IMG/VR virus record: IMGVR_UViG_3300033149_004321
Reading direction: 5' to 3' (one strand)
Source of the DNA: an uncultured virus (IMG/VR IMGVR_UViG_3300033149_004321)
Lineage: Duplodnaviria > Heunggongvirae > Uroviricota > Caudoviricetes
DNA length: 64,000 nucleotides
Positions 40,763 through 59,513 of this stretch are shown in pieces (within the stretch, counting starts at the first letter, position 1; each line of letters starts with the position of its first letter). The notes below the pieces were generated by a model. The model was not told the DNA's origin. It saw only the letters and a program-made list of their open reading frames with translations, and ran no database searches. The translations under genes were made by a program, and so were the position numbers.

Positions 40763-40764
40763 AT

Positions 40765-42010: not shown

Positions 42011-44086
42011 TTATTCTCTTGAATATAAAACATCCGCTAATTTCATCAGTTTGTGTACGTTATTAGTCGTGTCCATTGTAACAAGCCAAAGTTCGTTATC
42101 AGGAACTTTCACACTATCAGCCAAATGTGCTATCATATTAGTCAAAGAATCCTGCAAAGTAGCCAAGGCAACGCCCCCACTCAAAGTAACATCACCAAAA
42201 TCAACCCTAACTAATCTTGAACCGCCAGAAACGAGACTATCTGTATTATATGCAAAAAGTTCAAGAAAATTCCTCGCGTTTGCAATTACTTGTAAAGTAT
42301 CACCTGCCCAGTCCGATTGATTGGTTTTATGTGGAAAATAGTTTGAAAGAAAACCTCTGTCCCCATAATACATAATTTTATTTGAATTCTTGATAGCATA
42401 GGTAACTGTATAAGGATTATTCCCTGTATCTATTTCTGTAATTATTACCATACCATTATTCAAAGTTGTATATACTAATGTATCGGGTACTTCAGCGAGT
42501 GTTCTTACGTTACTTGGATTCGAACGCGTTGTATCGTTAGCACTATCAATTACAACTATCGAAAAGGTTGTTAATGAATCTGGTTTCCAATTCCAATTTG
42601 TAACTGTATCCGTTATTGTTCTTTCAACACCTGTTCCTCCAGAAAAAACAGTATCCCCTATAATAACGTCGTTTTCATTACTAAAATAATACCCTTTTAC
42701 ACTATCCCAAACTGTAGAAAAGGTTATCTCTATTGAGCTGTCATTTTTGACTGGTCGAAACGATTCGCTAAAAAGTTTTCTTTCATCATTTAAGGTTACA
42801 CCAAAATAGGGTCTGTCTCCTGTTTCTGTAACGTATTCTCCACTATAAACACCAAAGCCTCTAATATTACTATCAGTAGTATCTTCATTGATTATCGCTA
42901 TCCAAAGAGTATCGCCTATATACCTGGACACCGTATCTTTTGGTATTATGGTATAAACTGTATCTCCTACAGCACTCCAATCGGATGTTAAAATAGTATC
43001 TAAAGGTGTTTTATTTGTTTGCCAATCCAACCCCAATATACCCACAAACCCTGAATCGTTACTAATCCAATTAACTGTATTATATATTTTATGTGAAGCT
43101 GAAGGAGAACCTGTTTCGGTTTCTCCATTTTTCGTTCCTTCCACAAAACCAGTAGCTGCCGGGTCAATTACATATACAAAACCCGTGTCATTTATCCAAC
43201 TATCATTACTTATTACTGTTCTCAAAGTACCGTCAGTAGCTACACTATATTCGTTGCTTGGATAATCTGCCAAATTTACCCAAAGTAATGCTGAATATTT
43301 CCTCGTTGTCGATGCGCCAATAAACAATGTAGTAGATACTCCATAATTAAATTCAGTGTTCACATTTCCTCTGTTATAAAATAAATAAGTATCCAATAAA
43401 TCTGTAGTAGTTAAAACAACTGAAATCGTAGGGTCTATTGTAATCGGATAATTATAATCATTTCTATTCCCTTCTATTTCAAATACCATGTATTGTTTTC
43501 TGTTTATTTCAATTAAATTCCAAGACAAAGGTATTCTTCTTTCTCCAAGAAAATAATTATTATCTTTACACCAAGCATAAGGTCTTTGTATTTTTATTAT
43601 TGCTTCATTATCTTTAACAACAACTATCGTAGAGTCTTCAAGCATAACTATTTCAGAATCATTATCTATTAGACTTAATTTAACTAAAAATTTGTGTCTT
43701 GCAAATTTGTTTTTAATTATATATTCAGTTTTAATTCCTTCAGGAAAGGTCTGTAAGATATAATCAACATTTTTCCAGGCATTAATATATCTTCTTTTAT
43801 TTTTAGTTTTAATGGGGTTTTTTTGAAACACGTTGGTATTCTGTTCTTGTAAAAGTAAAACAACACCTTTAGTTTCAATTTTAATGGGTTTTCTTGGATT
43901 ATTATTACCTCGATAAATCATTTTATCAGAAATATATTCAGTTCTGAAATTACCTACTTTTCTATCCCTTAATTCATATTTTCTGAAATTATTTGAACCT
44001 TTTCTGATTTGTATATCTCTTTTCATTTGTCCGAAAGCATTTGAACATAAGAACAGAAATAAAATAGTTAAACATATCTTTTTCAT
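42011..44086 (-). CDS. Large signal-peptide-bearing beta-rich protein (DNRLRE/CBM-like and Fn3-like regions)
   Basis: MKKICLTILFLFLCSNAFG|Q; YPITIDPT, DTYL..NYG..LFIG; 18 D(S/T)(AILVMT) motifs. Confidence 0.75.
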   Translation of the reverse strand: MKKICLTILFLFLCSNAFGQMKRDIQIRKGSNNFRKYELRDRKVGNFRTEYISDKMIYRGNNNPRKPIKIETKGVVLLLQEQNTNVFQKNPIKTKNKRRYINAWKNVDYILQTFPEGIKTEYIIKNKFARHKFLVKLSLIDNDSEIVMLEDSTIVVVKDNEAIIKIQRPYAWCKDNNYFLGERRIPLSWNLIEINRKQYMVFEIEGNRNDYNYPITIDPTISVVLTTTDLLDTYLFYNRGNVNTEFNYGVSTTLFIGASTTRKYSALLWVNLADYPSNEYSVATDGTLRTVISNDSWINDTGFVYVIDPAATGFVEGTKNGETETGSPSASHKIYNTVNWISNDSGFVGILGLDWQTNKTPLDTILTSDWSAVGDTVYTIIPKDTVSRYIGDTLWIAIINEDTTDSNIRGFGVYSGEYVTETGDRPYFGVTLNDERKLFSESFRPVKNDSSIEITFSTVWDSVKGYYFSNENDVIIGDTVFSGGTGVERTITDTVTNWNWKPDSLTTFSIVVIDSANDTTRSNPSNVRTLAEVPDTLVYTTLNNGMVIITEIDTGNNPYTVTYAIKNSNKIMYYGDRGFLSNYFPHKTNQSDWAGDTLQVIANARNFLELFAYNTDSLVSGGSRLVRVDFGDVTLSGGVALATLQDSLTNMIAHLADSVKVPDNELWLVTMDTTNNVHKLMKLADVLYSRE

Positions 44087-44102
44087 AAATCCCTCTTTAA
44101 AA

Positions 44103-44531
44103 TTAAATCTGTGTCGGTTCTCCAATGTTAATAACTAAAGTTGTTGCGTTTAAAGCCCATCCTACTTTTACAAGGAAATCACCTGAACCATAAGTCGGAG
44201 CTGTTTGTGAAATATTACCTGAACCTGAAAGAAAAACATCACCACCAATAGTGCTAAAACTCCAACCAGGATTTGATATATCACCTCTCATTTGCATAGT
44301 TCCCGTTGCATCTTCAGCAACCGCTTCTGTCATAATACCTATTACTCTTGCTTCTGATAAACTACCTATGTCCGCAGGTAATACTTTACCGTTTGTATGC
44401 ATATAAACAGCATCATATTGTGAAACGCCACCAGCACCGCCAGTAACCACCATTCCTATCAAATCCTGACGTAAATTATTATAATCAGTTGCTAAAGCGG
44501 CATCGCCCGCTACAACATCACTTGATTCCAT
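44103..44531 (-). CDS. Virion protein (DUF2190/cement-like domain)
   Basis: SQYDAVY, ARVIGI, GGDVFLS..G.ISQTAP; paralog of the C-terminus of 45791-46795. Confidence 0.6.
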   Translation of the reverse strand: MESSDVVAGDAALATDYNNLRQDLIGMVVTGGAGGVSQYDAVYMHTNGKVLPADIGSLSEARVIGIMTEAVAEDATGTMQMRGDISNPGWSFSTIGGDVFLSGSGNISQTAPTYGSGDFLVKVGWALNATTLVINIGEPTQI

Positions 44532-44641
44532 ACTTTAAATTTCCTTCTACTTCAATATATTCATCCATAATAAATTTTATATCTTCATAAAATCTTTCCC
44601 AATAATCGTTATCTTTTTCTTTTTCGTTCATTTTAATACCA

Positions 44642-45785
44642 TTATGGAAATTTAGGGGTTAAATCAACTTGAAATAAATCACCTTTTATATATATAAAAA
44701 GACTATCACCAACGGTAAAAAGAACATTTCCCGCACCAACTGAAACAGCTCCAAAACCAGCGGTATCAGTATTAATAGATTCAATATAATTTGTTATCTT
44801 ACTTTTGTCAACTTTGATATTATCAATATAAGCCGTACCCCCAAGCATTTGCCCTGTTATCTTTGTGAAATCTAAATGCCTGCTCTTGGATTCCATATAA
44901 GCATCGTATATTTCAGTGGCGGAAAGGGCACGTTTGTATAAGTAGATTTCATCTATAATACCTTGATAATTACGACTAGCATATTGAGTATCAAATAAAT
45001 TTGAACCTATACTTATATTAAAATTATTAGGTCCGAAATCAGCTATATAAGTAAGTGACTTGTCAAATATACCATTCAAATATACTTTGAATGCACTACC
45101 ATCATATATTCCTACAACGTGCGTCCAGGTATTCAATTTCACGGCAGTGTTACTGGTAACTAATCTACCAGCACCAGCGCCAGACCAAACCTGTATTTTG
45201 CCTGAAGTTTCCTGAATAACCAAAGCATACCCATCAGTCCAACCATCCTTACTTATAATACACTTATCTGAACCCGCAAAAGAAGTGGGAAATATCCACG
45301 CTGAAATAGTTATTTGTCCAGTAATGTCCAAATCATCACAATCATTAACAATAATAGCACTTGCACCATCAAAACTGTATGCACCCCCAAACATAGAACT
45401 ATCTGGATTATTTACATTTGTAGCCCCACTATCAATACCGTTGTGTGCGTTTTACAAGAGAATCAGAACTTATATCTGACTTCAATGACATCACTGGTTC
45501 TCTACCTGTATCTATGTATGCTCTATCGAATATAACAGTATCAATCTTTGTACTGTCATCAAGCATAGATATACCAAACGCGTTCATTGAATCTACAAAA
45601 GCATCCAATTTTAGAAGTGTTTGTACGCTATCTGATAAAACATCTTTTATGCCGTCATTAGTCCACATTCGCAGAATCGTCTGTTCAGAATACGTTGAAT
45701 CCCAACAAACCACTTGAATATAAGTCTGTCCAAATAAAGAAAAGGGTAATAATAAGATTAGTATTAAAAATAAAATTCTTTTCAT
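44642..45785 (-). pseudogene. Signal-peptide-bearing LamG/concanavalin-like protein, frameshifted near 45452
   Basis: MKRILFLILILLLPFSLFG|Q; second frame NAHNG...AYSFDG, ITISAWI, WTHVVGIYDG, VYLNG, GIIDEIYLYKRALS. Confidence 0.75.
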
Positions 45786-45790
45786 TCCAA

Positions 45791-46795
45791 TTACCTCGCT
45801 ATGAATTCATCCGCAATGTCTATGACAAGTGTTGTTGGAGATTTAACCCAACCAACCCTAACCAAGTATTCCCCGCTCCCACTTGGAGGCGTTTCTGTTA
45901 ATTCTCCATCTGTTGTGGCAAGATAAACCTCACCACCAATAGTTCCAAAATTCCAACTTGCATTTGTGATTTCACCATTTATCTGCACATCTCCAAGACT
46001 GCCTTCAGCTATGTCTTCCATAGCAATCCCTCTGATTCTTGCAGAAGTTCTTGACCCGGCATTTGCACACAACACTGTTCCACTATCAGTAACGTAAACA
46101 GCATCATATTGCGAAACGCCTCCGGTACCACCTGTCAGTTCTAATTTTATATAATCCACTGAAGTTATCCCTGTTAAATTATCTATGTCTATATAACCAT
46201 CAACGGTTAATGAATATGAACTTGTTTTATTTTCTGAAATTGAAACGTGATTAAATAACACGCCTGAATCTGCTACCCCTGTCGCGCCGTCGCCAAACCA
46301 ACCAAATTCATATAAAGTCCCCCCTGCTGGATTACCGTTTCCACTTGAAATATACAATCTTGCTCTTACCTGCGCTGAAGAATAGGATATGACAGCTACA
46401 GTAGTTCTGTATATTTCATTAGATAAAACTGTATCTGCGATTGAAGGAGAAACTGAAGTATCTCCTACTGCTCCATAAGTAATATCACAATCGTTACTAC
46501 CACCAGCCAACCTGTTCGCTATTGATTTTCTACCCACAGTTGTAGTTACGTTTGAATAAGAACAAATATTAATCGGTTTGTTATATTCAATTAAATCATT
46601 TATTTTTAATTGTATTTCATTCAATAATTTTCTATTTACTAAAGAAGAGTTATTTTTAAATTCTTTGTAAACTTCATTTCTTTTTTTAATCAGAAAATTA
46701 ATATCGTTTTCCAATACCAAATCTTTTTTTCTTTTGGAAAACAATACATTACCTTTTAAACCCAATTTATTTTTGTAATTAATTATTCTTTTCAT
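45791..46795 (-). CDS. Tail/baseplate-associated protein with C-terminal cement-like domain
   Basis: NVTTTVGR, AVGD, DTVLSNEIYR, EFGWF, LFNHV. Confidence 0.7.
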   Translation of the reverse strand: MKRIINYKNKLGLKGNVLFSKRKKDLVLENDINFLIKKRNEVYKEFKNNSSLVNRKLLNEIQLKINDLIEYNKPINICSYSNVTTTVGRKSIANRLAGGSNDCDITYGAVGDTSVSPSIADTVLSNEIYRTTVAVISYSSAQVRARLYISSGNGNPAGGTLYEFGWFGDGATGVADSGVLFNHVSISENKTSSYSLTVDGYIDIDNLTGITSVDYIKLELTGGTGGVSQYDAVYVTDSGTVLCANAGSRTSARIRGIAMEDIAEGSLGDVQINGEITNASWNFGTIGGEVYLATTDGELTETPPSGSGEYLVRVGWVKSPTTLVIDIADEFIAR

Positions 46796-46798
46796 TTA

Positions 46799-48271
46799 TC
46801 ATCCCCAATCAAAAAACCCCCAATCACCTTGTTGAGCATCGGGACCCCAAGTAGTAGTGCCTGATTCTATCAATCTAAATGTATGGTCTGTATCGTTTAA
46901 TTCCATTTCCTCGCTATGAAACGTATATTTATCAATTAATTCATCACCTTTCTTTTCAGTCAATTTTGTATATCTAACAAGTTCAGCTATTACTTCTGAA
47001 GCCCATTTAGGTGCTTTTGCAAATTGTATTGTATAAAAAGCATACCCACCCCCAATCGTTTTCGTAGTTACAGAAGTAATCATATATGTATTATCAACCG
47101 AACTATCCCAATTTGGCGGGTCTAAAGTTAATAACTGTCCTGATTTATAACCTGTGTTATGTGTTTCAAAACTACCACTTATTCTTGGATAAGCATATTC
47201 ATTTATTTCCGCAAGCCCTCTGTCTCTTGCTTCATCATTTGAACTGATGGAATTGTCTATTATTATGCCTTCATGTATTCCGTCGCCACCTTCTATACTT
47301 TTAGCATAAGCTTGAGCATCAGCATTTATTACTTGTGTTATGACCTTTATATTATATGAATACAAACAGAAAACACTATCAGGAACATCAGGAATAACCT
47401 CACCTCCTGCTGTATTACAATAGACAGTCTTTGCATTATAATCAAGCAAATAAGCATAACTAACATCACCATCATCTTTATCCTTTACTCCAACAGTTTT
47501 TTCTGTTCCTGTATCCCAATCTACACCTACTCTTATTTCTAAACTATGAGGAGAATAATTCAAAACCCATTCTTCAGTTGTTCCATCCCCAGCAAAAGAT
47601 TCGGTAGTTGGAGAACTTAAATAATTTCCACCATGAACCATTACTTGATTTTTTACTTCCGAAAAATCCCAATTTATTTTTAGATTTCTAACTGCATCAT
47701 TATTTTCATCTATTTTATAAGGAGCAATATTTGTTTCTCTTGGAAAGAAATGTACATCTTTTTCGTAATCAACATACCATTCATACCCAGCTATTTTTGC
47801 CAGTCTTCTTATGCATTCTGAAATAGAAACATAATTAAAAACTATTGTATCAATAGTAGGACCTGTATCTACATTAGTTGTTGTAAATCCCCATGTGTTA
47901 TCTATATAATTATTAAAAATATGATTTATAATAGTATTACAACTTGAATTTGTATAAGCTTCAGCTACCAATCTATATTCCAAAATCCTTTGATAATCAA
48001 CACAATTAACATAATATTTAAATTTACCAGGAGAAAATTGCACACCATCAACACTGTCTATTATCCCACCAAATAAAATTCTTGAAGTATTATCGTCATC
48101 CGTTTGTATTATTTCAACGACTTGTCCATTTTGAGGTCTATTAGTAGGGTCAACTAAAGTAAATGAACAGGTATTTACTTTATCTGTTACTACATCTTGG
48201 ATTGAAATAGTACCTTTTTCAATCTTTTTTGTTACATCAATACTATTAATTGTGGTTTCAATAGATGGCAT
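46799..48271 (-). CDS. Minor tail (hub/tip) protein
   Basis: Directly after tape measure; LFGGII, CVDY, WYVDYEKDVHFF, NQVMVHGG. Confidence 0.7.
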   Translation of the reverse strand: MPSIETTINSIDVTKKIEKGTISIQDVVTDKVNTCSFTLVDPTNRPQNGQVVEIIQTDDDNTSRILFGGIIDSVDGVQFSPGKFKYYVNCVDYQRILEYRLVAEAYTNSSCNTIINHIFNNYIDNTWGFTTTNVDTGPTIDTIVFNYVSISECIRRLAKIAGYEWYVDYEKDVHFFPRETNIAPYKIDENNDAVRNLKINWDFSEVKNQVMVHGGNYLSSPTTESFAGDGTTEEWVLNYSPHSLEIRVGVDWDTGTEKTVGVKDKDDGDVSYAYLLDYNAKTVYCNTAGGEVIPDVPDSVFCLYSYNIKVITQVINADAQAYAKSIEGGDGIHEGIIIDNSISSNDEARDRGLAEINEYAYPRISGSFETHNTGYKSGQLLTLDPPNWDSSVDNTYMITSVTTKTIGGGYAFYTIQFAKAPKWASEVIAELVRYTKLTEKKGDELIDKYTFHSEEMELNDTDHTFRLIESGTTTWGPDAQQGDWGFFDWG

Positions 48272-48280
48272 TATAATTAA

Positions 48281-51166
48281 TTATATTTGTACCATTCTTC
48301 TTACATTTACAGCTATTCTTTTGTCAATTTCATTTACAAGTTCATCAATTCTTTCACTACTATCAATTGTATTTCCAGTTACATTTATATAAATATTATT
48401 AACATTTTTGCTACCAAAATCGCCACCCCTTATCTTGCTTGCTATTGCTGATGGGATTATCATTTCACCTCTGTGTATATTGGCTAACATATCTGCAGGA
48501 ACATTGCTTATTCCTGACCGAGCCCCTATCGGAGAAGGAGAACCCATAGCTCTCCATTCGCTTATATTAGGGGCCATACCTATTCCTGTTTTTACTACAG
48601 GTACTCTGGGTATTCCACCAGGATACATTCTTCTTAAATTTCTTTCATAATCAGGGTCGCCTGGGAAAACAGGTTCACCGAATTCATCAAAAACATCTAT
48701 ACCAGACATAGGAACTGTTTTTCCTGTCCAAGGGATACCTGCTTCACGTAATTTTCTTATGTAATCTGCTTGTGCCGAACCTTGTATAGCTTGTTGTCTT
48801 TTTGCCAAATAAGCTTGATATCTATCCTGTTCTGTATAACCTATATCTGACAATACAGCTGCCCCCCAAGCTGTCCCTGCAGCAAGAATACCTGCAGCAG
48901 CTCCAACCCCTGCTCCTACACCAACCCCAACGCCAGCTCCCGCTCCTGCGCCAGCTCCCGCTCCAGCACCAGCTCCTATTCCCAAAGCAGATGTTATTTT
49001 ACTTTTAACACCTGAAAATATACTACCTATCGTATTTCCTAAACCACTAAATATTTCAGAAATACTTTTGCTTCCTTTTAATGTATCTTCCAATATTTTA
49101 TCTATAAATTTTCCTTTATAATTTTTTGCTATTGCATTCCAGTTTCCATCTAAAGCATCTTTCAAATCTTCATTCACTTTTGTAATATCTTGTCCTAAAG
49201 CAACCCATAAATTGCTGAATGAGGTGGGTTCTTCACCCATCAAAATTCCTTTCAACAATTTCTTTTGATTTTCTAAAGATTCTTTATGTGCTTTTTCTGT
49301 CTTCTTTATTGACCTTTCATTAATAGATTTTTCGTATTTTTCCCAAGCTGTCAACATACTATCGGTTGTTTTTTTTGTTTCCTTTTTTACTACAATATTT
49401 GATTCCTCTACTTCTTCTTCCTGATTTTCCAAGCTACTAATCAAATCTTGTAATTGTTTTTCTTCTTCCGATTTTTTCGTTAAAGTAACTTCTTTTGCCA
49501 TTCTAATTTTTTTATCAGTATGTTCTCGAATCTTTGCTTCAACTTTTTCAGTAAATGTTTTTGTTTTATCCAATTCAAATTGTCTATTGGCTTCTGCCCG
49601 TTCTCTCATTCTTGCTTCTATTTCTTTTATATCTGCTTCAACATCTGCTCCAAAAAACCCTTTAGTTTGCAAGTATGTTTTGTAAATAGCGTCTACTGTA
49701 TTTTTGAAAGCCCCAATTAATTGAGTAAATCCCCCACTTAAATCGTCCATTAATACTTGAATGGCAGCAATAACCCAAGAAGCTTTTTCCTGTATACCTC
49801 CCCAATCCCTTTTCCAAGCTGTATATAATAAGCCAACTGCCGTTACTATTGCCATAATGGCAAGAACTACTGGATTTCCAAGAAAAGAAAGATTTAATAA
49901 CTTGACAGCTGCTGTTATTAATTTTATAGAAGTAACTATTTGTGGAAGCATAAGTAAGACTGGACCCATAGCTAACATAAAAGCTCCTATACCTCCAGTC
50001 AATAATGTTAAAACAGTCGTTAAAGTTTCATGTTTTGAAAGTAAATTAGCAATATAACCTATCCATTCTGCAAAACTATCAATAACTTTTCCTATAATAG
50101 GTATTAAATTATTTCCAATAACAACCAATAATTCTTCAATTTGATTCTTCAAAGTTGCCCATTTCAAAGTAAAACTTTCGTTCATCTTTGTAAAAGCTAA
50201 ATCAGTTGCTCCGACTGTTTTTTCCATTGCTTTCATGGTAATATTATATTTTTCATTCATCGCCCCACTTAAAGATAAGGCTGCTGTCAAAGCTCTAACA
50301 TTTGGAAACAATTGTGCCATTATTTCTACATTACCGCCAGTGGCCTCTTTCATTTCATTCATAGCACCAATCAAACCTTTTTCCTGCAACGTTGTAGCGC
50401 TTAATTCCAACCCAAAACGTGCGGCAGTCTTTGCTGCATCATCAGTAGGTTTAATAAATCCTGTCATTAAACCTTTTAATGCTGTCATTGTTGTAGCAGT
50501 ATCAATACCACCTGCTGTCATAGCTGCCGTTGCTGCTGCCAAGTCTTCAAAAGAAACGCCTGCATTTGTAGCAATAGGTATAGCGTTACCCATTGTAGCA
50601 GCCATTTCTGCAACAGTTGTTTTACCTAAATTCTGCGTTGTAATCAATGTATCCATTACATGATTAACATCAGTCTGTGCATCACCATAAGCATTCATTA
50701 TTGTAGATAAAAGATTAACTGAAGTAGCTGTATCTGTAAAACCCGCTGTAGCCAATTTGGCAGCCCCTTCAACAAAAACTAATGCTTCAGATGTGTCAAC
50801 CCCAGCAGATAAGGCTTGATACATTGCTTCTGTAAGTGTATTCAAATCTTGTGGAACAGTTCTTCCGATTTCACGTAATCCTTTAGCAAAGACTTCCATA
50901 TTAACTTTAGCAGTGTCAACAAGTGTGGAAACTTTATTCATTCCTTCTTCAAATTTAGCTGCTTTTATAGTAGCACCTGTCAGACCTGCTGTGATAGCTG
51001 CTCCTGCTACCGTGAAAGCTTTTCCTACCACCCTGATACTTGCTTGATGCTTTTTAATAGACCTATCTAATTCATTTAAATATCCTTTAGCATCTGAAAC
51101 CATTCTGTTTACTGCTGCTGCACTGGATTTTAAATTAATCAATATGTCGCCAAGATTAACACTCAT
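48281..51166 (-). CDS. Tail tape measure protein (TP901 family)
   Basis: 961 aa, Ala-rich helical; KFEEGMNKVSTL, AMYQALSAG, NLGKTT, ANIHRGEMIIP. Confidence 0.92.
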   Translation of the reverse strand: MSVNLGDILINLKSSAAAVNRMVSDAKGYLNELDRSIKKHQASIRVVGKAFTVAGAAITAGLTGATIKAAKFEEGMNKVSTLVDTAKVNMEVFAKGLREIGRTVPQDLNTLTEAMYQALSAGVDTSEALVFVEGAAKLATAGFTDTATSVNLLSTIMNAYGDAQTDVNHVMDTLITTQNLGKTTVAEMAATMGNAIPIATNAGVSFEDLAAATAAMTAGGIDTATTMTALKGLMTGFIKPTDDAAKTAARFGLELSATTLQEKGLIGAMNEMKEATGGNVEIMAQLFPNVRALTAALSLSGAMNEKYNITMKAMEKTVGATDLAFTKMNESFTLKWATLKNQIEELLVVIGNNLIPIIGKVIDSFAEWIGYIANLLSKHETLTTVLTLLTGGIGAFMLAMGPVLLMLPQIVTSIKLITAAVKLLNLSFLGNPVVLAIMAIVTAVGLLYTAWKRDWGGIQEKASWVIAAIQVLMDDLSGGFTQLIGAFKNTVDAIYKTYLQTKGFFGADVEADIKEIEARMRERAEANRQFELDKTKTFTEKVEAKIREHTDKKIRMAKEVTLTKKSEEEKQLQDLISSLENQEEEVEESNIVVKKETKKTTDSMLTAWEKYEKSINERSIKKTEKAHKESLENQKKLLKGILMGEEPTSFSNLWVALGQDITKVNEDLKDALDGNWNAIAKNYKGKFIDKILEDTLKGSKSISEIFSGLGNTIGSIFSGVKSKITSALGIGAGAGAGAGAGAGAGVGVGVGAGVGAAAGILAAGTAWGAAVLSDIGYTEQDRYQAYLAKRQQAIQGSAQADYIRKLREAGIPWTGKTVPMSGIDVFDEFGEPVFPGDPDYERNLRRMYPGGIPRVPVVKTGIGMAPNISEWRAMGSPSPIGARSGISNVPADMLANIHRGEMIIPSAIASKIRGGDFGSKNVNNIYINVTGNTIDSSERIDELVNEIDKRIAVNVRRMVQI

Positions 51167-51973: not shown

Positions 51974-52006
51974 CTTTTTGGCTCCTTAAATTTTAGTATT
52001 TAATTA

Positions 52007-52513
52007 TTATGTAGCTACGTCTGTGTCGCCAAAACAGAATAACTGATAACCAGCACTTTTTGAACTATCCCTATAGCCATGAAAAACAGCAGCAATAGTT
52101 TTTACGCTTTCCTTATTATAACCTATTTCAAAAGTTTCTTGACATAAAGCTTTGAATATAGTTATTTTCTGATTATCATCCGTTTCCCAAGATGGCTCTA
52201 AAACAAGTTCAGCTAAATCACTCGTCGATATTGTGTCGCCACCAAAATCTAACCGTTCATCATCCCCACTTGTGGTTAATGTTCCTTGCGTGAAAACATA
52301 AGATAAATTAGTGGGTCCTGTTTCTGCAAGAGGAACGGTAGCGGTGCAAGCTTCACCCGTCAAGAAAGTTGTTTCTTTCATAGTGTACTGGTCGGCTGTA
52401 AAATCTACAAAAGTTGGAGTATATGTAAAAGTTACTCCTCCTGCTGACCTGCCTAAATCGTTACCATCATACGTAATGGAACAAGGCCCCAAATGTACAT
52501 CAGTTAAAGCCAT
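52007..52513 (-). CDS. Major tail tube protein
   Basis: LGPCSITYDGNDLGRSAGGVTFTY, ADQY, VPLAE, ITIFKA. Confidence 0.8.
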   Translation of the reverse strand: MALTDVHLGPCSITYDGNDLGRSAGGVTFTYTPTFVDFTADQYTMKETTFLTGEACTATVPLAETGPTNLSYVFTQGTLTTSGDDERLDFGGDTISTSDLAELVLEPSWETDDNQKITIFKALCQETFEIGYNKESVKTIAAVFHGYRDSSKSAGYQLFCFGDTDVAT

Positions 52514-52525
52514 TTTTTATCTCCT

Positions 52526-52966
52526 TTACCCTACATAGTTAGCGTCTTCCCTTACTTTTACGTGAAAAGAAAGGTATTGTATTGGTAGTTCAATATCTGG
52601 GTCTTTCTGCAAATACGGACCCGATATTAGGGCAGAAGCAAAAACATAAGCTTCACCCATTTCCAGATTGTTTTTCCTGTGGAGCAAATCTCTTATCATC
52701 CAAGCCATAACTTTTGATATTTGCGAATCATAAGACCTGCAAAAGATTTCTACTCTTGCATTATCTATTTCAAGATACGTCTCAATCCCAACATTGCCTT
52801 GCCTTCTTATTTTAACAGCATTCACTCCCCTTGCCAAATTCGGAGACCACCTATGCAAACAAAAAGTAGGTTTGGTTGTTAAATTGCTTTCACTCCAGGG
52901 TGTTGTCCAATTATCTTCTAAATAAGTTTTTAATTGTTCTTCTAAATAATTATTTAATGTAGTCAT
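52526..52966 (-). CDS. Tail terminator/completion protein (putative)
   Basis: Synteny; RVEIFCRS...IRDLLH. Confidence 0.6.
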   Translation of the reverse strand: MTTLNNYLEEQLKTYLEDNWTTPWSESNLTTKPTFCLHRWSPNLARGVNAVKIRRQGNVGIETYLEIDNARVEIFCRSYDSQISKVMAWMIRDLLHRKNNLEMGEAYVFASALISGPYLQKDPDIELPIQYLSFHVKVREDANYVG

Positions 52967-53349
52967 TATTTATTTTCAACTGATTCAAATACATCTTTCT
53001 TTAATGCATTGGCTACTAAACTAATAACATCTTTCGATTTTTCTTCAAGAGCAGGCCATAAAAAAGGTTGTGCATCCATCTTACTTGTTCCTAGTTCAAC
53101 ATAAGGAGCATAATAAGCGTTAACACCCACAATTGTCAAGAAATTTGAAACTTTCTCTACAAAATGATTCCTTTGTAAATTACCTGTTTTTACTGGAACA
53201 ATTTCCTGTGATTTTGTTTTAACTATGTTCCCGCTCTCATAAAGAGCATCACCTAAAACTTCTGCTGTTTCTTTATCAATCCAATCCAATTTTCTCTTTA
53301 TTGCTTCAAGACCTTCAATTGTCAAATCTAAATATTTTTCGGTAACCAT
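52966..53349 (-). CDS. HK97 gp10-family tail-completion protein
   Basis: VPVKTGNLQR, YAPYVELGTSKMDAQPFLWPA. Confidence 0.88.
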   Translation of the reverse strand: MVTEKYLDLTIEGLEAIKRKLDWIDKETAEVLGDALYESGNIVKTKSQEIVPVKTGNLQRNHFVEKVSNFLTIVGVNAYYAPYVELGTSKMDAQPFLWPALEEKSKDVISLVANALKKDVFESVENK

Positions 53350-53351
53350 AA

Positions 53352-54482
53352 TTAATCCAGCTTTCTGTAAGCAACTGCTATTGTTAATGAATCTATATCT
53401 TCTCCGGCACCCGTTTCTGTAAAACTTAATTTCAAAGTTTCACCGCTTGCCATATCGGCATTTTCAGCATGTAAATCACCCATATCTTCAAATATCCCTG
53501 CCGTCAACGCAAGCCCTGCTGCATAGGGTCCACTTATATATCTTTCAACAATTTTTGATGTGCCATTTTTAATAGAAACTAATACATAATTTGAATCGGA
53601 ATCAGCAGCATACGTTTCTGTCGAACCAATGTAAACTTTATCTATTACAATTCTTCCAGCAGTTATCATTAGACAAAAAACGTGGTCAGCATCATCGGAT
53701 TTAGTATAATCCCCCAAGTTAAAAACATCTACAAAATATCTGTCCCTTGCTCTTGGTTGTGTCATTATCCCTTCAAGGTCAACACCAAATACTTCCGTTC
53801 CACCTTCCTTGAATGAAATATGGTCCCTAACTGTCTGGTCGCTTATTATAGTGCCGTCTGTTTTTGCCGGTTCGGCGAATTCAATAACTGGGTCGGACTG
53901 TGCATCTGTATTAGAATCTGTGCTTGTAGCTACTATATTATATTCTATTCTTACTGTGAATCCTGAAAGAGCCATGCCATTTCCAGATTTAGCAAACTTA
54001 ATATAAACAGTTTCATTAGGTAATATTGTGGAATAATCTGTATCAATAGTCCCACTTGCACGCCAAGTGTTAAGAGTAAAACCAGCAGAAGCCGTTGTAA
54101 TAGCTGCCGCTACTGTTCTTTCCGTAGCACCTGCTCCGGCCTTTTTGCAAATGGAAATAGACTGATAATCAGTGGTATCCAACGCTACGGATGTGTCTGT
54201 AGCAAAATCTGCTGTCTTTATTGTTACAGGAACAGGCGCTCTGAAAATAGGAAATAAATTCCCATCTTCATTTGCCGCTATATCTCCAAGACAAACGTGG
54301 ATTGTTCTTGTTTTCCATCCTGAATTTGAAACGATTTCTCCGTGTTTATTTATTCTACAAACTTCTGTACCGCTCTTTGTCATTCTTATAAAATCGCGAC
54401 CTTTATTATCATCTATTTCGATAACAGGTCCCGTTGATTCTTTTAAATCATCAAATAATAGGCACTGATCCCCGGCTGCCAT
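53352..54482 (-). CDS. Putative virion structural protein (two tandem copies of the domain in 54628-55152)
   Basis: Repeated VCLGDIAA..D / FAKSGNGMALSGFT pattern. Confidence 0.65.
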   Translation of the reverse strand: MAAGDQCLLFDDLKESTGPVIEIDDNKGRDFIRMTKSGTEVCRINKHGEIVSNSGWKTRTIHVCLGDIAANEDGNLFPIFRAPVPVTIKTADFATDTSVALDTTDYQSISICKKAGAGATERTVAAAITTASAGFTLNTWRASGTIDTDYSTILPNETVYIKFAKSGNGMALSGFTVRIEYNIVATSTDSNTDAQSDPVIEFAEPAKTDGTIISDQTVRDHISFKEGGTEVFGVDLEGIMTQPRARDRYFVDVFNLGDYTKSDDADHVFCLMITAGRIVIDKVYIGSTETYAADSDSNYVLVSIKNGTSKIVERYISGPYAAGLALTAGIFEDMGDLHAENADMASGETLKLSFTETGAGEDIDSLTIAVAYRKLD

Positions 54483-54627
54483 ACTTAACCTCCTATATTA
54501 TTTAAATTTATTTTCAAAACTGTTTTTTCCTCATTCTATAGTTAAATTGCTTTTTTAATTAAAATTCTTTTTCATTCTTTTAGTATTGTCTTTCCTTCTT
54601 TCTATTAAAACCCAATTTATTTTAATA

Positions 54628-55152
54628 TCAGGCTTCACAAGTAAACACAAGATGCAATGTGAATCCCTCAAGAGCCATTCCGCTACTTGCTTTTGTAAAT
54701 GTACAGTAAACTTTCTCATCAGCAGCCAAAACCTTATGCGTCCCATCTAAAGAACCGCAATCATTAGCTACCCCACCAGTAAGACCTGCTGCTGTAGTCG
54801 GAGGCGAGCTGAATATGGCGTTATCATCTTTATCATATAAATTAATTGTTTGATAATTAACGGCATCTGCTCCAACATCATCAGCTACACTATAATAAAC
54901 TTTATATAAAGTAACCGCTTCTAATTTTTGAAAAATAGGTATTTTCAAAGAATCTGAATCAGCGGCCACGTCTCCTACACAAACATTTTGATAATGATAT
55001 TGCTGATTATTTGTCTGGTCAGGTAATCCATTACAATCTATACTGAAAGTTTCCGTGCTATCTTTTTTACAAACTAAAAAGTCATTGTCAGATTGGTCAA
55101 GAATTATAATAGCACCTTTACCCTCTGGGTTTTTAATTTTTAATGCTGGCAT
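54628..55152 (-). CDS. Putative virion structural protein
   Basis: VCVGDVAADSD ... FTKASSGMALEGFT; AGGAG RBS. Confidence 0.65.
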   Translation of the reverse strand: MPALKIKNPEGKGAIIILDQSDNDFLVCKKDSTETFSIDCNGLPDQTNNQQYHYQNVCVGDVAADSDSLKIPIFQKLEAVTLYKVYYSVADDVGADAVNYQTINLYDKDDNAIFSSPPTTAAGLTGGVANDCGSLDGTHKVLAADEKVYCTFTKASSGMALEGFTLHLVFTCEA

Positions 55153-55168
55153 TTCTATTACTCCTATT

Positions 55169-55357
55169 TTATATTATTTCAATGTCTTTCCTTATTTTCT
55201 TTTTTGATTTATTCTTTTTCAGCTTTTCTATTCTAACTTTCTTTTCAAGTTCGATATTCGGTTTAAGCCAGGGATAATATTTTTTCAAATTTTCAATTTC
55301 TTTTTCTGAAATTTTATCATCTACTATATCTTTTATCATTTTTATTCTTCCACCCAT
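55169..55357 (-). CDS. Hypothetical protein
   Basis: AAGGAG RBS. Confidence 0.5.
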   Translation of the reverse strand: MGGRIKMIKDIVDDKISEKEIENLKKYYPWLKPNIELEKKVRIEKLKKNKSKKKIRKDIEII

Positions 55358-55370
55358 AATTAATTACTCC

Positions 55371-55715
55371 TTATATAGTCAACGCTTCTTCTAAAGATTC
55401 CCTAACATCCACATGATAACTTAAAGTTTTTCCAAACTGATTTTTACTTCTCTTTAAATAAATTATTTGATATGTTTTTCCATCATAAACAATCCTGTCT
55501 TCTGAATCAATAGAAGCTTTATTTTCTATTATAAAAGAACCATCCATCAATTCATCTTTACCTGTAATTCCCACTGTCAATCTTTCTCTTTTTGAAAGAA
55601 AAAAACACCTTGCTTCCTGTGAAGTTTTATAACTAACATTTCCATAATCATCATAAGTAACCCCTGAACGTATATAACAAACTTCACGTAGTATTTTATC
55701 TATTGGTATTCGCAT
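55371..55715 (-). CDS. Head-closure (head-tail joining) protein
   Basis: YDDYGN, EDRIVYDGKTYQI. Confidence 0.65.
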   Translation of the reverse strand: MRIPIDKILREVCYIRSGVTYDDYGNVSYKTSQEARCFFLSKRERLTVGITGKDELMDGSFIIENKASIDSEDRIVYDGKTYQIIYLKRSKNQFGKTLSYHVDVRESLEEALTI

Positions 55716-56911
55716 TATATTATCATTTCCGTAGGTTCAGTCTTTGCATACCAACCCAATTGTTGATATAATTCAGGAGGCAAACCATTTTTAAAATCTG
55801 CTGCTGAATATTCATAATCACCATCACTAATATTTTCCTTTTTGAATGCTCTATCCAATCTACTCAAACCATATTTGTAAGCAACCATTTCACAACATAT
55901 CTGTTTTAACGGTTCTGGTATCGTTTCGTACCCGCCAGTATAAGAAACTGTTATATTCATTACTCTATTAGTTACATTTAAAATAGCACTTGTTGATAAA
56001 TCCAAAATTCCTTCATCATAAAGCACATCAAAATCAGATAAAGGATTACTGGGCAAATACAACGTTATAGTTGTTTCTTTAGCATTCAAACCAGAAACTT
56101 TAAATAAATAAGAACAAGGATAATCAGCATAATCATTATCCATCAGTTCAGCTGTCCAACCCAAATCACTGTCCAAAGCATTTATGGCATCGACCATTTC
56201 TGTTATAGTATCGTCATCTTCAAAAGTCAAATCTTCATCGCTACCATTTGAATCCCCACCAAATATTTTCAAATTTATCTTGGCAGTTGTTACTTCAATA
56301 GGACAGAAAGCCGTATCTGTCAAAGTATTTTTTATTGTCATCACTCCTGTCCTACCTGTGCTTACCTTTACATCAGAAACTATTGGATAATTATTTAACA
56401 TTATTAATCCACTATCAGTTACACTGTGTCTTTCGTTTATAAATGAACGGCTTTTCAGTTTCCTTCTACATTCATTTTCAATTCCTATAGAAGCATTGTT
56501 TATAAGCATTTCTAAAAGAAAATTATCATAACAATATAAAATCAATTTATTCGTTTCACCTAAACAACTTGTAGCTTCTTTTATAATTAAATCGGTTGAA
56601 GAAACATTTGACCTTCCTTCAAGATTAACGACCCAACCCTTATCCCAAGTGTCATTTATATAATCAACAAGTTCTGTCAAAGTATCATAATCATCAGCAG
56701 TCAAATCTATTGTCTTATCTCCATTATTAGCTCCTGAAGAAGTTACACTTAATATCATTGCTTCATCTTTGACTTGGACAGTAGCTGCTGTCGTTACCCC
56801 ATCAGAATTAGAATTGTAAATTGAAATCCCAGAAGTTTGAACGTTCTCCCTTTCTTGCAAATAATTTTTACATTCTTCTAATGAGATTAATGCGTATTCT
56901 GAAAGACTCAT
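55715..56911 (-). CDS. Head-tail connector (gp6/gp15-like) with two inserted domains
   Basis: LISLEECKNYL, LINNAS..IENECRR, VSYTGGYETIPEPLKQ; repeated DTLTELVDYIN / DTITEMVDAIN inserts. Confidence 0.75.
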   Translation of the reverse strand: MSLSEYALISLEECKNYLQERENVQTSGISIYNSNSDGVTTAATVQVKDEAMILSVTSSGANNGDKTIDLTADDYDTLTELVDYINDTWDKGWVVNLEGRSNVSSTDLIIKEATSCLGETNKLILYCYDNFLLEMLINNASIGIENECRRKLKSRSFINERHSVTDSGLIMLNNYPIVSDVKVSTGRTGVMTIKNTLTDTAFCPIEVTTAKINLKIFGGDSNGSDEDLTFEDDDTITEMVDAINALDSDLGWTAELMDNDYADYPCSYLFKVSGLNAKETTITLYLPSNPLSDFDVLYDEGILDLSTSAILNVTNRVMNITVSYTGGYETIPEPLKQICCEMVAYKYGLSRLDRAFKKENISDGDYEYSAADFKNGLPPELYQQLGWYAKTEPTEMII

Positions 56912-57008
56912 TTTAATCCATTTTTAGTTATAAGAATAATTTTATTTTTTAAATTTTCAAAATAATATTAAACTTACCATTAATCACCATTTTATCTTAT
57001 CATAAAAA

Positions 57009-57824
57009 TTAATCATTTCTTTCTATCCACCCAATAAGAGAAGCCGTTACATCCGACGCTGCTGTTGTTTCAACAGCAAGATATACATCCGTTCTTTCAC
57101 TTATTACTATGGGAAAGATAAACTCATTTCCTGATGTTGTATATTGTATTTTCTTTACCCATATAGAACGGTCAGTTTTATTATAAGGAATAATGTGTAT
57201 GCCAAAACTTGCTATTACTGCCTGTGCAATTGAACATTCAAAATAAGCTAAATATAAAGTATAATTGTCTGGAACGGTATAAAATGCGTGATATGTCTGC
57301 CCATCATAAGCGTTAATCATACCAACGGTTGTATCTGCACCAAGATTTGTTATACGCAAATTGCCTTTTAATGTATCAGCTCCAGAAGAATCTACCCAAG
57401 CCCTGTTCAATCTCAAAAATTCCTTTGCACTCTTCACTCTATTTGTACCATCCAAATCAAGTGTATCCCTTATTACATTATAATCAGCATCCAACCCTTC
57501 AAAAATTACTGTTCTTCCTCCAGTACCACCTTTATCGTCAGCCGCATTATTGGAACAAACCATCAAAGATTCAGCAGCCGCCAAAGGATTATAAGTACCT
57601 GAACTATCCCAGATAACTTGATGTGCTGCCCCGGTTGAATTGCAAACCCCTATAATATTAACCGCTTCTGCTCTTTTAATTATACCTTTGGCTATATTAA
57701 GATAATACGTTTGGGCAGATACTCTCAAATCACCATCCTCAAATTCTACTCTACTGTTCCACTGGGCGAATAACGTAGTGGGAAAGAATATAAATAAAAT
57801 TAAATAGTATAATAATTTTTTCAT
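57009..57824 (-). CDS. Signal-peptide-bearing beta-rich protein in head module
   Basis: MKKLLYYLILFIFFPTTLFA|Q; SNNAADD, GLDADY, FLRLNRA, YTVP. Confidence 0.75.
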   Translation of the reverse strand: MKKLLYYLILFIFFPTTLFAQWNSRVEFEDGDLRVSAQTYYLNIAKGIIKRAEAVNIIGVCNSTGAAHQVIWDSSGTYNPLAAAESLMVCSNNAADDKGGTGGRTVIFEGLDADYNVIRDTLDLDGTNRVKSAKEFLRLNRAWVDSSGADTLKGNLRITNLGADTTVGMINAYDGQTYHAFYTVPDNYTLYLAYFECSIAQAVIASFGIHIIPYNKTDRSIWVKKIQYTTSGNEFIFPIVISERTDVYLAVETTAASDVTASLIGWIERND

Positions 57825-57828
57825 TTTT

Positions 57829-58323
57829 TTATCTCACATTGACTTCCAATGTATAGGGGATAGTTCTCCCCTTATTTACGTTTAATGAATCTGTATTTCT
57901 TACTAAAAACAACATATGCTCTGCCGCTTCAGGATTAATTTTAAAATGATTATATAAATTATAATGCTTAACACTATCTTCAAGATTAATAGCAACTGCT
58001 CCAGAAGAATCTGGATGTGGAACTAACAAAGTATCCCAAAAAGCATACCCCCATTGTAAATTTATTCTGGGTAATTTTCCTTCAGTGTAAGCGTTTCCCG
58101 ATGTATCATATTTAAATTTTACTTCAACTACCCCAGTAAAAGATTGATTAGCTAAATTGATTCTTAAAGTATCAATATCGAGTTTATTCGTTCCACCGGC
58201 ATCGACGCTATCAGGAGCAAGTAAAGTGCCTTGCATTGAAAATTTCACCATTCTTTGTGAATAAATATCTGAAAACCAAAGGACAAAAAATGATATTAAT
58301 ATAAATATAAATAATTTTTTCAT
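57829..58323 (-). CDS. Signal-peptide-bearing protein in head module
   Basis: MKKLFIFILISFFVLWFSDIYS|Q. Confidence 0.7.
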   Translation of the reverse strand: MKKLFIFILISFFVLWFSDIYSQRMVKFSMQGTLLAPDSVDAGGTNKLDIDTLRINLANQSFTGVVEVKFKYDTSGNAYTEGKLPRINLQWGYAFWDTLLVPHPDSSGAVAINLEDSVKHYNLYNHFKINPEAAEHMLFLVRNTDSLNVNKGRTIPYTLEVNVR

Positions 58324-58341
58324 TGGACACCTAAAAAGATT

Positions 58342-58372
58342 TTCCCTGCGGACTATAAAAGCCCGCAAGGAA
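58342..58372 (-). terminator. Hairpin / terminator
   Basis: Minus strand ttccttgcgggc-ttttata-gtccgcagggaa then aatcttttt. Confidence 0.55.
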
Positions 58373-58393
58373 TAATTAATTATTCTTCTTCAT

Positions 58394-58561
58394 TCAACTT
58401 AACTTTTTCTTTCTTCTTTCTTCTGATAATATAGAAGGCACGTCTTCAGCTCTTGCATTAAAAACGCTACCTGGTTCTAACAGCATACTTTTACCGTTAA
58501 CATTATACCTCAAAAATCTACCTGGCAACATCTTCATTCTAAAAACATTTTTAATAGCCAT
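58394..58561 (-). CDS. Small hypothetical protein
   Basis: GGAGGAG RBS; MAIKNVFRMKMLPGRFL...; below ORF-track cutoff. Confidence 0.5.
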   Translation of the reverse strand: MAIKNVFRMKMLPGRFLRYNVNGKSMLLEPGSVFNARAEDVPSILSEERRKKKLS

Positions 58562-58586
58562 TGGACTCCTCCATAAGTTTAATTAA

Positions 58587-59513
58587 TTATTTTTCAGCCA
58601 CTATTCTATACCAGTCTTCAAGTAAATACTGCCCGGCTGTAGTCCCTTCTCCCTTTTTTAATTCTCGGAAAGGCGTTAATTTTCCACCGATTGGTAAATT
58701 AGAAGTACCTGCAATACTGTCTATCAATACACCATTAGCATACCACCAAACGGCGCAATCGGTACCTTCACCGTCAAAATGAAATCCTAATGTATTCCAG
58801 CCAAGATTCCCAGAAGCAGGTAATAAAATTAACGAATCAGTCAATTCAGTTGTCACAGCTAAACCAAAAGCAGCCTCTAATTGATAAGCTGTATGTGTCC
58901 CCAAAGCAACTCTCCATTCACACCAAATTTCTTTTGTGCTGTCCATAACAATAGATGTGTTGTTTATATGAGAATTGTTAAGACCATCATCTTGGCTTGT
59001 TGTAAGTATTTTTAAAACCCCACCAGCACTATCTGGTAGCGTATATCCATTTTTACCTGTATCGGAAGAACAATACCATCCAGCTATTGATGAATCCCCG
59101 GGTCCTGCGGATATATCAGCACAAATCCAATCTTCAAATAACTCAAATACTTCTGATGCATTATGCCAACCTATATTAGTTTTAATTTTATTATTCCACA
59201 TACCTGTATTAGGACTTTCAATAACATTGGTACCATCAAAGTATAATTCATAATCATCGTCAGTTCCTAAAAGTATTCCATAATTATCAGCAAAGTTATA
59301 ATTGGCAGACGCATCAGCTATAACTGTTCCTGATTGTATGTCAACAGTAGCGCCGGAATTTAATTGTATTTCACCACCATCTTTAACCACCATTCTATCA
59401 CCGCCCGTGTCAAAATAAATCTTTGTTATGTAATCAGATTGAGCAAATACAATTCCAACTACAATCAAAGAAGCGGAAAGCAAAGTGGTTATTAATTTCC
59501 AATTCTTTTTCAT
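58587..59513 (-). CDS. Signal-peptide-bearing putative head decoration protein
   Basis: MKKNWKLITTLLSASLIVVGIVFA|QSDYITKIYFDTGGDRMVVKDGGEI; AGGAGG RBS; lectin-like beta C-terminal half. Confidence 0.75.
   Translation of the reverse strand: MKKNWKLITTLLSASLIVVGIVFAQSDYITKIYFDTGGDRMVVKDGGEIQLNSGATVDIQSGTVIADASANYNFADNYGILLGTDDDYELYFDGTNVIESPNTGMWNNKIKTNIGWHNASEVFELFEDWICADISAGPGDSSIAGWYCSSDTGKNGYTLPDSAGGVLKILTTSQDDGLNNSHINNTSIVMDSTKEIWCEWRVALGTHTAYQLEAAFGLAVTTELTDSLILLPASGNLGWNTLGFHFDGEGTDCAVWWYANGVLIDSIAGTSNLPIGGKLTPFRELKKGEGTTAGQYLLEDWYRIVAEK

Follow-up and report, generated by a model that had tools for sequence, protein, structure and literature searches.

Five late genes of an uncultured tailed phage, embedded among its head and tail genes, encode proteins that appear to be exported and then glycosylated by the host. 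The window analyzed here is the whole 64,000-nucleotide (nt) stretch from IMG/VR record IMGVR_UViG_3300033149_004321, and all coordinates are positions in it. Each of the five proteins begins with a Sec-type signal peptide (leader) whose predicted cleavage leaves a glutamine, and as a group they are densely populated with the tripeptide D-(S/T)-(A/I/L/V/M/T), the sequon of the general protein O-glycosylation system of Bacteroidota. That the leader-bearing proteins are real substrates of Sec and signal peptidase I (SPI), in a host that places Gln at +1 (the Q-rule), is well supported as a deduction from the sequence, as is the deduction that the five are substrates of the host's D-S/T-hydrophobic O-glycosylation system. 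The whole chain of events, up to their addition to the virion at lysis, is our leading reading of these genes, though a tentative one.

Leaders were called on 94 open reading frames (ORFs) with a heuristic for the n-, h- and c-regions and the -3/-1 positions, complemented by reading by eye. The heuristic flags 7 of the 94, five of which are the candidates at 39454-39894 (SP146), 42011-44086 (SP691), 45432-45785 (SP117), 57009-57824 (SP271) and 58587-59513 (SP308), all on the minus strand; the other two are an N-terminal membrane anchor in the lysis cassette (40765-41253) and a probably spurious ORF (24584-24802). SP164 (57829-58323, minus strand) was missed because the scan range was one residue short, and by eye its leader comprises MKK, 14 hydrophobic residues and IYS↓Q. 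All six leaders have a basic n-region and an uncharged hydrophobic core, and in 6/6 Gln stands directly past the -3/-1 site, the predicted junctions being CKA↓Q in SP146, AFG↓Q in SP691, LFG↓Q in SP117, LFA↓Q in SP271, IYS↓Q in SP164 and VFA↓Q in SP308. ORFs, coordinates and leaders are all as the original prediction had them when it named five virion-module genes, together with 39454-39894, as encoding a signal followed by Gln. The likeness that it saw in the last of these is partial: SP146 does have the signal and the Gln, but it contains only 1 sequon and lies in the lysis cassette adjoining the endolysin gene, outside the virion-module set. Its mature part of 122 residues ends in Phe and, by eye, resembles a small outer-membrane beta-barrel; SP146 could be an unusual outer-membrane lysis component.

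Gln at +1 of SPI substrates is the Q-rule of Bacteroidetes, which, in the accessible text of its description, is obeyed by 332 of 334 Bacteroidetes species and by Ignavibacterium album (Q-value 77%) but not by most Chlorobi (PMC5837995). A further argument that the leaders are real secretion signals is that some relatives of SP308 carry a lipobox in place of the SPI site, a swap to be expected only if they are.

The original prediction had counted sequons by hand, and its figures (18, 6, 5, 4 and 3 in the five proteins, 3 in a 490-amino-acid (aa) tail protein and 1 in the capsid protein) are exact. Set against 2000 composition-preserving shuffles, SP691 (691 aa) has 18 sequons where 3.28 are expected, SP117 (117 aa) has 6 vs 1.04 and SP164 (164 aa) has 5 vs 0.5, in each case with 0/2000 shuffles as high; SP308 (308 aa) has 4 vs 1.5 (p 0.06) and SP271 (271 aa) has 3 vs 1.19 (p 0.11). 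Pooled, the five proteins hold 36 sequons vs 7.5 expected (z 10.7), a count that none of the 2000 shuffles reaches, while 20 leaderless virion-module proteins hold 24 vs 23.1 (z 0.2). The enrichment that had been anticipated, both over shuffled proteins and over signal-less virion genes, is therefore present, and it corresponds to 2.49 sequons per 100 aa in leader-bearing vs 0.45 in leaderless proteins (Fisher 7e-11). The early ORFs (n=58) contain 20 sequons vs 16.5 expected.

The excess is specific to the motif. Nine control motifs, with E, N or G in place of D, with permuted orders, or of the form N-x-S/T, are flat, and shuffling the mature parts within 20- or 40-residue blocks leaves the expectation at 8.8 or 8.1 (z ~10). 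D-S/T dipeptides number 52 in the five proteins vs 19 expected, and the residue that follows is A, I, L, V, M or T in 36/52, where composition gives 39% (p 1e-5); the corresponding figure for leaderless proteins is 24/59 (p 0.46). The dipeptide excess together with the third-position bias indicates that both halves of the motif contribute. Leader, Gln and motif-specific enrichment co-occur only in the leader-bearing proteins. According to the accessible text of a review, the sequon is enriched in non-cytoplasmic proteins across nearly all Bacteroidota families, is nearly fully occupied, and becomes glycosylated when engineered into proteins (PMC12871550). Signal, Gln and sequons together are a marker of host phylum that can be read from phage sequence alone.

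The same combination recurs in the sole relative of SP691 found among 5.8 billion clustered proteins. This protein, P0005 (748 aa, 29% identity), likewise opens with a signal, which ends in LNA↓Q, and holds 25 sequons vs 4.8 expected, many at positions aligned with those of SP691; that leader, Gln and sequons persist at 29% identity supports the reading of SP691 as a Sec and glycosylation substrate. In gene order, SP691 closes the tail-tip block. Its Atlas look-alikes, CBM96/DNRLRE clusters, are a weak lead only. A search of PDB sequences with SP691 and SP271 gave nothing meaningful, Pfam and NCBIfam at loose cut-offs gave a sub-threshold DUF7948 match for P0005 only, and neither SP691 nor SP308 found a match among cultured phages. 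Word-indexed protein searches returned 1, 1 and 3 relatives. SP164 is a small orphan protein, and for SP691 and SP164 no homology was found to annotated or detected virion proteins.

Independent support comes from a near-identical relative of the window, the IMG/VR record G001 (47,109 bases), which covers window positions 20685-64000 at 99.7-100% identity and carries the same ORFs, starts and counts. The two differ by 5 substitutions and eight short indels: relative to G001 the window is without 41 nt at 45452/45453, 93 nt at 58854, 25 nt at 58420, 56 nt at 29171, ~30 nt at 23188, and 8 nt and 4 nt elsewhere, and it has 7 nt extra. Several of these indels, which may be assembly errors or population variants, break or shorten genes or regions: the signal+LamG gene, SP308, a 55-aa ORF and the polymerase-split region near 23188. 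The first case qualifies the original description of a "LamG gene" with a signal. In the window there are two minus-strand ORFs: SP117, the 5' fragment, with its leader and an N-terminal domain holding the 6 sequons, and a LamG (Laminin_G_3) fragment at 44642-45451, consisting of ORF 44642-45394 and a frame open upstream to 45451. They lie in different frames that overlap, and the 41-nt gap falls exactly between them. In G001 the two are one 394-aa protein (signal, N-domain, Laminin_G_3) with 8 sequons vs 2.62 (p 0.003), and since the gene is whole there, the single LamG gene first described corresponds to the undamaged form; the copy in the window is either a broken variant or an artifact of assembly. 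The LamG ORF matches PF13385 (E 2.6e-27), and the fragment also matches PHROGs named virion structural protein and baseplate wedge. SP308 gains 31 residues from the 93 nt in G001, giving a 339-aa form (identical to P0007) with 6 sequons vs 1.75 (p 0.002). Enrichment is thus singly significant for 3/5 proteins in the window and for 4/5 in their G001 forms.

The five genes do not look like passengers. Their GC content and that at third codon positions (GC3) match those of their neighbors, the 5' gaps to the upstream gene are 4-16 nt for SP271, SP117 and SP691, and the starts of the leader genes have either a Shine-Dalgarno site or tight coupling to the gene upstream. Promoter-like sites (90 vs 86) and terminator-like sites (8 vs 8.2) are at background level. 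The reading as morons of the Lom/Bor type is rejected on the neighbor-like GC and GC3, the tight gaps, the background numbers of promoter and terminator sites, and the lack of an integrase among the ORFs scanned. Given this composition and spacing, and given leaderless homologues in the virion modules of other phages, the view that the five are virion-type proteins, fiber- or lectin-like, rather than foreign cargo is supported. A need for periplasmic disulfides as the rationale for export was also considered; the Cys counts give it no support.

SP308 offers the clearest picture of such a protein. It consists of leader, beta motif, linker and a C-terminal domain of the ConA-like lectin/glucanase fold. 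Its AlphaFold model (38-row alignment; predicted local distance difference test, pLDDT, 71.6) shows a leader helix, four short strands at residues ~27-63 (phrog_12102), an uncertain linker of low confidence and a beta sandwich that matches GH16 glucanases, legume lectins and Emp47p (Foldseek E 3e-7 to 1e-4, template-modeling (TM) score 0.4-0.5); among viral models, it matches Mtd-N-containing, SO2946-like, ConA-like, minor tail and virion structural proteins. Structure prediction, which the original prediction had proposed as a way to find decoration folds, was thus informative for SP308, but the model of SP271 is unusable, being too poor for a fold search (pLDDT 45.3).

An exhaustive phmmer search with SP308 gave 69 matches including the query, most of them aligned to residues 10-70, that is, to the leader and a glycine-rich beta motif of ~35 residues. 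These two elements are what SP308 shares with the 44 other members of what we call the N-motif family. Of 44 aligned members, 34 match phrog_12102, the C-termini differ between members, and lengths range between 59 and 740 aa. The motif was located by pattern in 45 proteins, with 37 having a hydrophobic leader of SPI or anchor type, 5 a lipobox, and 3 starting at the motif itself; the search leans toward leaders, its query being leader-bearing, and at least 3 more motif-bearing members were missed by the pattern. The predicted cleavage point of the leaders coincides with the start of the leaderless members. Most members come from high-GC sources, have Ala-/Val-rich leaders and show no sequon enrichment.

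A degenerate DNA pattern run against IMG/VR located six N-motif loci (GC 57-69%). At L005, and with the same genes at L010, portal, protease and capsid protein are followed by a 148-aa homologue of the 134-aa protein in the window, a lipobox-bearing N-motif protein, a 149-aa protein that has a signal of its own, and the adaptor. At L008, a 145-aa protein and a leaderless N-motif protein come after protease and capsid protein. With L005 and L008 at 57-66% GC, very different phages keep the succession of capsid gene, ~140-aa gene and N-motif gene, and the lipobox in the one and the lack of a leader in the other indicate that the N-motif leader comes and goes. In the window this order is anchored by the HK97-type major capsid protein (60088-61293, minus strand), and the 134-aa protein (phrog_5707; 59616-60020, minus strand), which lies between the capsid gene and SP308 and has homologues in the same place in L005 and L008, may be a partner of the SP308 family. 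The second leader-bearing protein of L005 (149 aa, 6251-6700, on a 66%-GC contig) follows the N-motif protein in a manner that mirrors SP164 and SP271. P0037, a leaderless family member, found no match among phages.

SP271 connects the set to other virion modules. It matches phrog_8198 (E 3e-28). By tblastn, homologues turn up in 38 phage records, most of them of T4-like cyanophages, where they neighbor terminase, portal or sheath genes. Some of these cyanophage homologues are labeled virion or tail fiber protein, the copy in S-SCSM1 being a "virion protein" in GenBank, and mass spectrometry (MS) of S-SCSM1 identified 45 virion proteins (PMC9602691, accessible text). Five homologues, three translated and two from the protein search, are leaderless with 0-2 sequons, which is chance level; a further one, P0011, has a signal ending VSA↓Q. 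Of the homologues elsewhere, the leaderless ones of SP271 lack both the signal and the sequon excess; most relatives of SP308 have leaders and are without the enrichment.

The Q-rule and the sequon together point to the phylum Bacteroidota as host. Within the phylum, translation signals narrow the choice. A Shine-Dalgarno 4-mer core occurs at -18 to -5 in 37/89 ORFs (42%) and a 5-mer in 28/89, over backgrounds of 5.6% and 2.7%, vs cores in 5/56 ORFs of Bacteroides phage B40-8 and 2/56 of Flavobacterium phage 11b; ribosomes of class Bacteroidia are described, in the accessible text, as blind to Shine-Dalgarno sequences (PMC10798248). A Bacteroides- or Flavobacterium-type host is therefore unlikely. 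With Shine-Dalgarno sites this abundant, the host probably belongs to Bacteroidota but not to class Bacteroidia; an Ignavibacteria-like organism would be an example. A host search in which the SP691 alignment and TnpB were compared with genome contigs, and two metagenome scans, gave no match.

How might such proteins be made and used? The five genes would be transcribed together with the virion genes. Their pre-proteins would cross the inner membrane, where SPI would cleave them and the exposed Gln would be converted to pyroglutamate by the host cyclase; the host's general O-glycosylation system would modify them at their many D-S/T-hydrophobic sites in the periplasm, and folding would take place there. 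Judged from leaders and sequons, this segment of the pathway, from export through SPI/Gln processing and glycosylation to periplasmic folding, is likely. Holin and endolysin would then mix cytoplasm and periplasm, and the proteins would bind finished particles as peripheral add-ons, with SP308 bound for the head and the tail tip receiving the signal+LamG protein together with SP691. The outcome would be a particle with a stabilized, host-glycan-coated and glycan-binding outer layer. Docking on particles at lysis is the weakest step, to which we give slightly less than an even chance. The best outside support for arrival on the virion, and the sole empirical hint of such proteins in particle preparations, comes from Cellulophaga phage phi18:3, whose gp085-087 combine signal and Gln with MS/MS-based structural notes in GenBank. 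A broader generalization, that tailed phages of Bacteroidota (and perhaps of other phyla, by way of the N-motif family) have a second, extracytoplasmic branch of virion morphogenesis, with the released virion wearing host O-glycan, is more speculative still.

Several points weigh against virion addition. We know of no mechanism that joins a periplasmic protein to a tailed-phage particle, and any docking window at lysis is short. The SP308 relatives with a lipobox or an uncleaved anchor would stay tethered to the membrane, which fits residence in the envelope better than in the virion. The three phi18:3 proteins are not enriched in sequons (1 each vs ~3 expected), and MS could have picked them up from envelope material that co-purified. 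ORF31, the S-SCSM1 homologue of SP271, is called hypothetical in its supplement row and may or may not be among the 45 MS proteins. The presence of leaderless receptor-binding candidates (the 334-, 142- and 490-aa proteins) implies that exported proteins are not needed on the particle. In the window's own forms, SP308 (p 0.06) and SP271 (p 0.11) are not significant singly, and the abundance of Shine-Dalgarno sites is a misfit to class Bacteroidia, where both host systems were characterized.

The strongest competing explanation accepts export and glycosylation and ends elsewhere: the proteins would never enter the virion but would reside in the periplasm or outer membrane, or be released at lysis, and act on the cell surface. 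They could, for example, act as lectin-type versions of receptor-binding modules that mask receptors on infected cells and debris and so save progeny from loss, exclude other phages, or help in lysis or adhesion. We consider this close in probability to the leading reading. The evidence for export is identical to that of the leading reading, and the exported phage proteins Lom, Bor, Llp and Cor are not known as virion parts. Membrane tethering is implied by the lipobox (5/45) and anchor-plus-linker variants of the SP308 family, and the folds, including the weak Atlas lead of SP691 to CBM96/DNRLRE, are of carbohydrate-binding types. There are partial precedents as well, in the Q-rule proteins of Porphyromonas gingivalis prophages, read as likely outer-membrane modifiers in the accessible text of Matrishin et al. 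(2023, PMC10367356), and in the lipoprotein gene of Flavobacterium phage 11b, which sits between capsid and adaptor genes. On the other hand, members of these families that occupy the same gene position without a leader (L008; P0033, P0037 and P0052; the cyanophage homologues) cannot act in the periplasm, which suggests that the ancestral role was cytoplasmic and probably in the virion. Five such genes spread over head and tail blocks, and the leader-bearing proteins of phi18:3 with MS/MS-based structural annotation, also fit an envelope role poorly, and late expression in a phage in which no integrase was found is late for exclusion. As to the route first proposed, Sec export for host glycosylation followed by incorporation into the virion, its opening part is supported, though inferred, while the cell-envelope fate offered as its alternative comes out about as likely as the virion.

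A cytoplasmic explanation is also conceivable, in which the leaders serve assembly, being membrane-associated or removed by the prohead protease, and the D-S/T excess is a habit of beta folds. It draws on the suggestion that signal peptides predicted on capsid proteins are cut by prohead proteases (Matrishin et al., PMC10367356, accessible text), on the coincidence between the predicted cleavage point in the SP308 family and the start of its leaderless members, and on the several SP691 sequons that stand in recurring G-D-T-hydrophobic contexts. Yet Gln at +1 in 6/6 and the lipobox variants are features of host secretion and not protease sites. The enrichment is motif-specific, with flat controls; it is absent from 20 equally beta-rich leaderless virion proteins and present in five unrelated proteins as well as in a membrane-anchored protein of phage B40-8. 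SP308 relatives with leaders and without enrichment further indicate that the fold does not demand the motif, and we regard this explanation as improbable. That chance or annotation is to blame, with wrong starts creating false leaders and noise creating the motif counts, is highly improbable: two of the five proteins are indeed not significant singly, and several small deletions relative to G001 betray an imperfect assembly, but 0/2000 shuffles reach the pooled count, the independent record G001 has the same ORFs, starts and counts, and the starts have Shine-Dalgarno sites or tight upstream coupling.

The genes around the five are of siphovirus type. The whole 64 kb is phage-like with ~30% GC. 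A library scan of the ORFs places replication and recombination genes in 1-37.7 kb: a split family-A polymerase, two clamp-like genes, a clamp loader, a primase, a RecA-like gene, SbcCD-like genes, two methylases, a sigma-factor-like gene and two TnpB genes. The siphovirus-type late region occupies 37.9-64 kb, with every gene on the minus strand. It opens with prohead protease (62345-63862), a scaffold-like protein, the capsid protein, the 134-aa protein, SP308, the 55-aa ORF, SP164 and SP271; there follow a head-tail adaptor, a head completion protein, two paralogous proteins, a Neck1-type protein, a tail terminator and the major tail protein. Two chaperone-like ORFs, the tape measure protein, the 490-aa and 334-aa proteins, SP117, the LamG ORF, the 142-aa protein and SP691 come next, and the lysis cassette closes the series with four small membrane proteins, a 184-aa protein, SP146 and an NlpC/P60 endolysin with an intein. 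Between the 55-aa ORF and SP164, a G+C-rich hairpin of 13 bp followed by a weak T tract (58342-58372, minus strand) may be a terminator or attenuator after the block of capsid gene, 134-aa gene, SP308 and 55-aa ORF; its position would fit strong expression of SP308 together with the capsid protein. The ORFs scanned across the 64 kb include no recognizable integrase, and no tRNA genes were found in the window; the phage looks virulent. Compared by tblastn with cultured phages, the capsid, PolA and tape measure proteins have only distant matches, with mixed hosts, and when SP271, the SP691 alignment and the capsid protein served as queries against IMG/VR, they led back only to the same or a near-identical phage.

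Some features of these neighbors deserve record in their own right. The endolysin gene (37907-39454, minus strand), of NlpC/P60 type, is interrupted by an intein that combines a splicing domain (E 1e-15) with a homing-endonuclease domain of LAGLIDADG type; the halves of NlpC/P60 themselves score below threshold. The lysis cassette (39454-41849, minus strand) includes SP146 and four small membrane proteins, one of which (41275-41583) has an N-terminal anchor and a coiled-coil-like tail and is i-spanin-like by eye. The 334-aa (45791-46795, minus strand) and 142-aa (44103-44531, minus strand) tail-tip proteins, whose genes bracket the signal+LamG gene, have a common C-terminal domain (50% identity over 117 residues) with a weak likeness to Phage_cement_2. 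The 376-aa protein at 53352-54482 (minus strand) contains two copies (E 9e-20 and 2e-11) of the domain of the 174-aa protein at 54628-55152 (minus strand); the pair has no family match and is sited between the head-completion and Neck1-type genes. The tape measure protein (48281-51166, minus strand) contains a 26-residue (GA)n/(GV)n run at residues 731-756. In the replication region, the two TnpB genes (OrfB_IS605 / Cas12f-like TNB), at 5187-6290 (plus strand) and 13626-14795 (minus strand), are 25% identical to each other, and a scan of 185,579 species genomes for TnpB gave no close copy. The family-A DNA polymerase is encoded by two adjacent ORFs, 22517-23155 and 23161-24231 (minus strand), and G001 has ~30 extra bases at their junction.

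In the textbook account, assembly of tailed phages is wholly cytoplasmic. Indeed, the absence of a signal peptide has been used as a sign of phage origin (Benler 2018, PMC6199706, accessible text). If the five proteins are exported, glycosylated and in the virion, phages borrow a post-translational system of the host, virion surfaces in Bacteroidota-rich habitats could carry host-type glycans with consequences for stability, adhesion and immune recognition, and signal peptides no longer separate phage structural genes from cellular ones. If they reside in the envelope instead, they represent a new class of late, lectin-type proteins for receptor masking or surface remodeling that derive from virion modules. 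Cultured Cellulophaga phages provide a direct test bed.

Exported phage proteins are familiar in another form. Lambda Lom and Bor, T5 Llp, Cor and Shiga toxin have Sec or lipoprotein signals, are encoded in some cases in or beside late or tail blocks, and are released or act in the envelope; they are morons, exclusion factors or virulence factors without known virion homology, usually single genes, often with their own promoter and deviating composition. The window, by contrast, has five genes with neighbor-like composition, tight spacing and virion-type homology. Glycosylated virions are known as well: mycobacteriophages carry O-linked glycans on surface proteins, added in the cytoplasm by phage glycosyltransferases. 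The window phage, unlike these, would borrow the host's periplasmic system by exporting its proteins.

On the host side, the same motif and the same Gln at +1 are described for Bacteroidota O-glycosylation and the Q-rule (PMC12871550, PMC5837995, PMC10653852), there in cellular proteins and here in late phage proteins; the accessible text of PMC12871550 makes no mention of phage, and the enrichment in the window is ~fivefold over chance. Among cultured phages of the phylum, Bacteroides phage B40-8 has a membrane-anchored protein after the endolysin (L013, 15801-16406) with 5 sequons vs 0.92, and the lipoprotein of Flavobacterium phage 11b (L014, 12286-12552) has 88 aa.

We found no description of Sec-routed parts of tailed-phage virions in the searchable literature. 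The nearest published remark concerns the Q-rule proteins of P. gingivalis prophages, which, in the accessible text of that report, are of unknown function and read as an adaptation to the host's general secretion (PMC10367356). Those phages differ in being temperate, and there virion modules, virion homology and O-glycosylation are not linked to the proteins, for which outer-membrane modification is proposed. The closest parallel is phi18:3 (NC_021794.1). As in the window, its adjacent gp085, gp086 and gp087 have signals followed by Gln (FGYS↓Q, VSA↓Q and LNA↓Q); they are labeled virion structural, structural and tail protein "based on experimental MS/MS proteomics analysis," and nine other MS-annotated proteins of the same phage are leaderless. 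Unlike the window phage, phi18:3 is a podovirus of a Flavobacteriia host; its three proteins have no sequence similarity to those of the window and, with 1 sequon each vs 2.9-3.6 expected, lack their enrichment. The window phage, a siphovirus, has five such genes, and its head block holds three of these.

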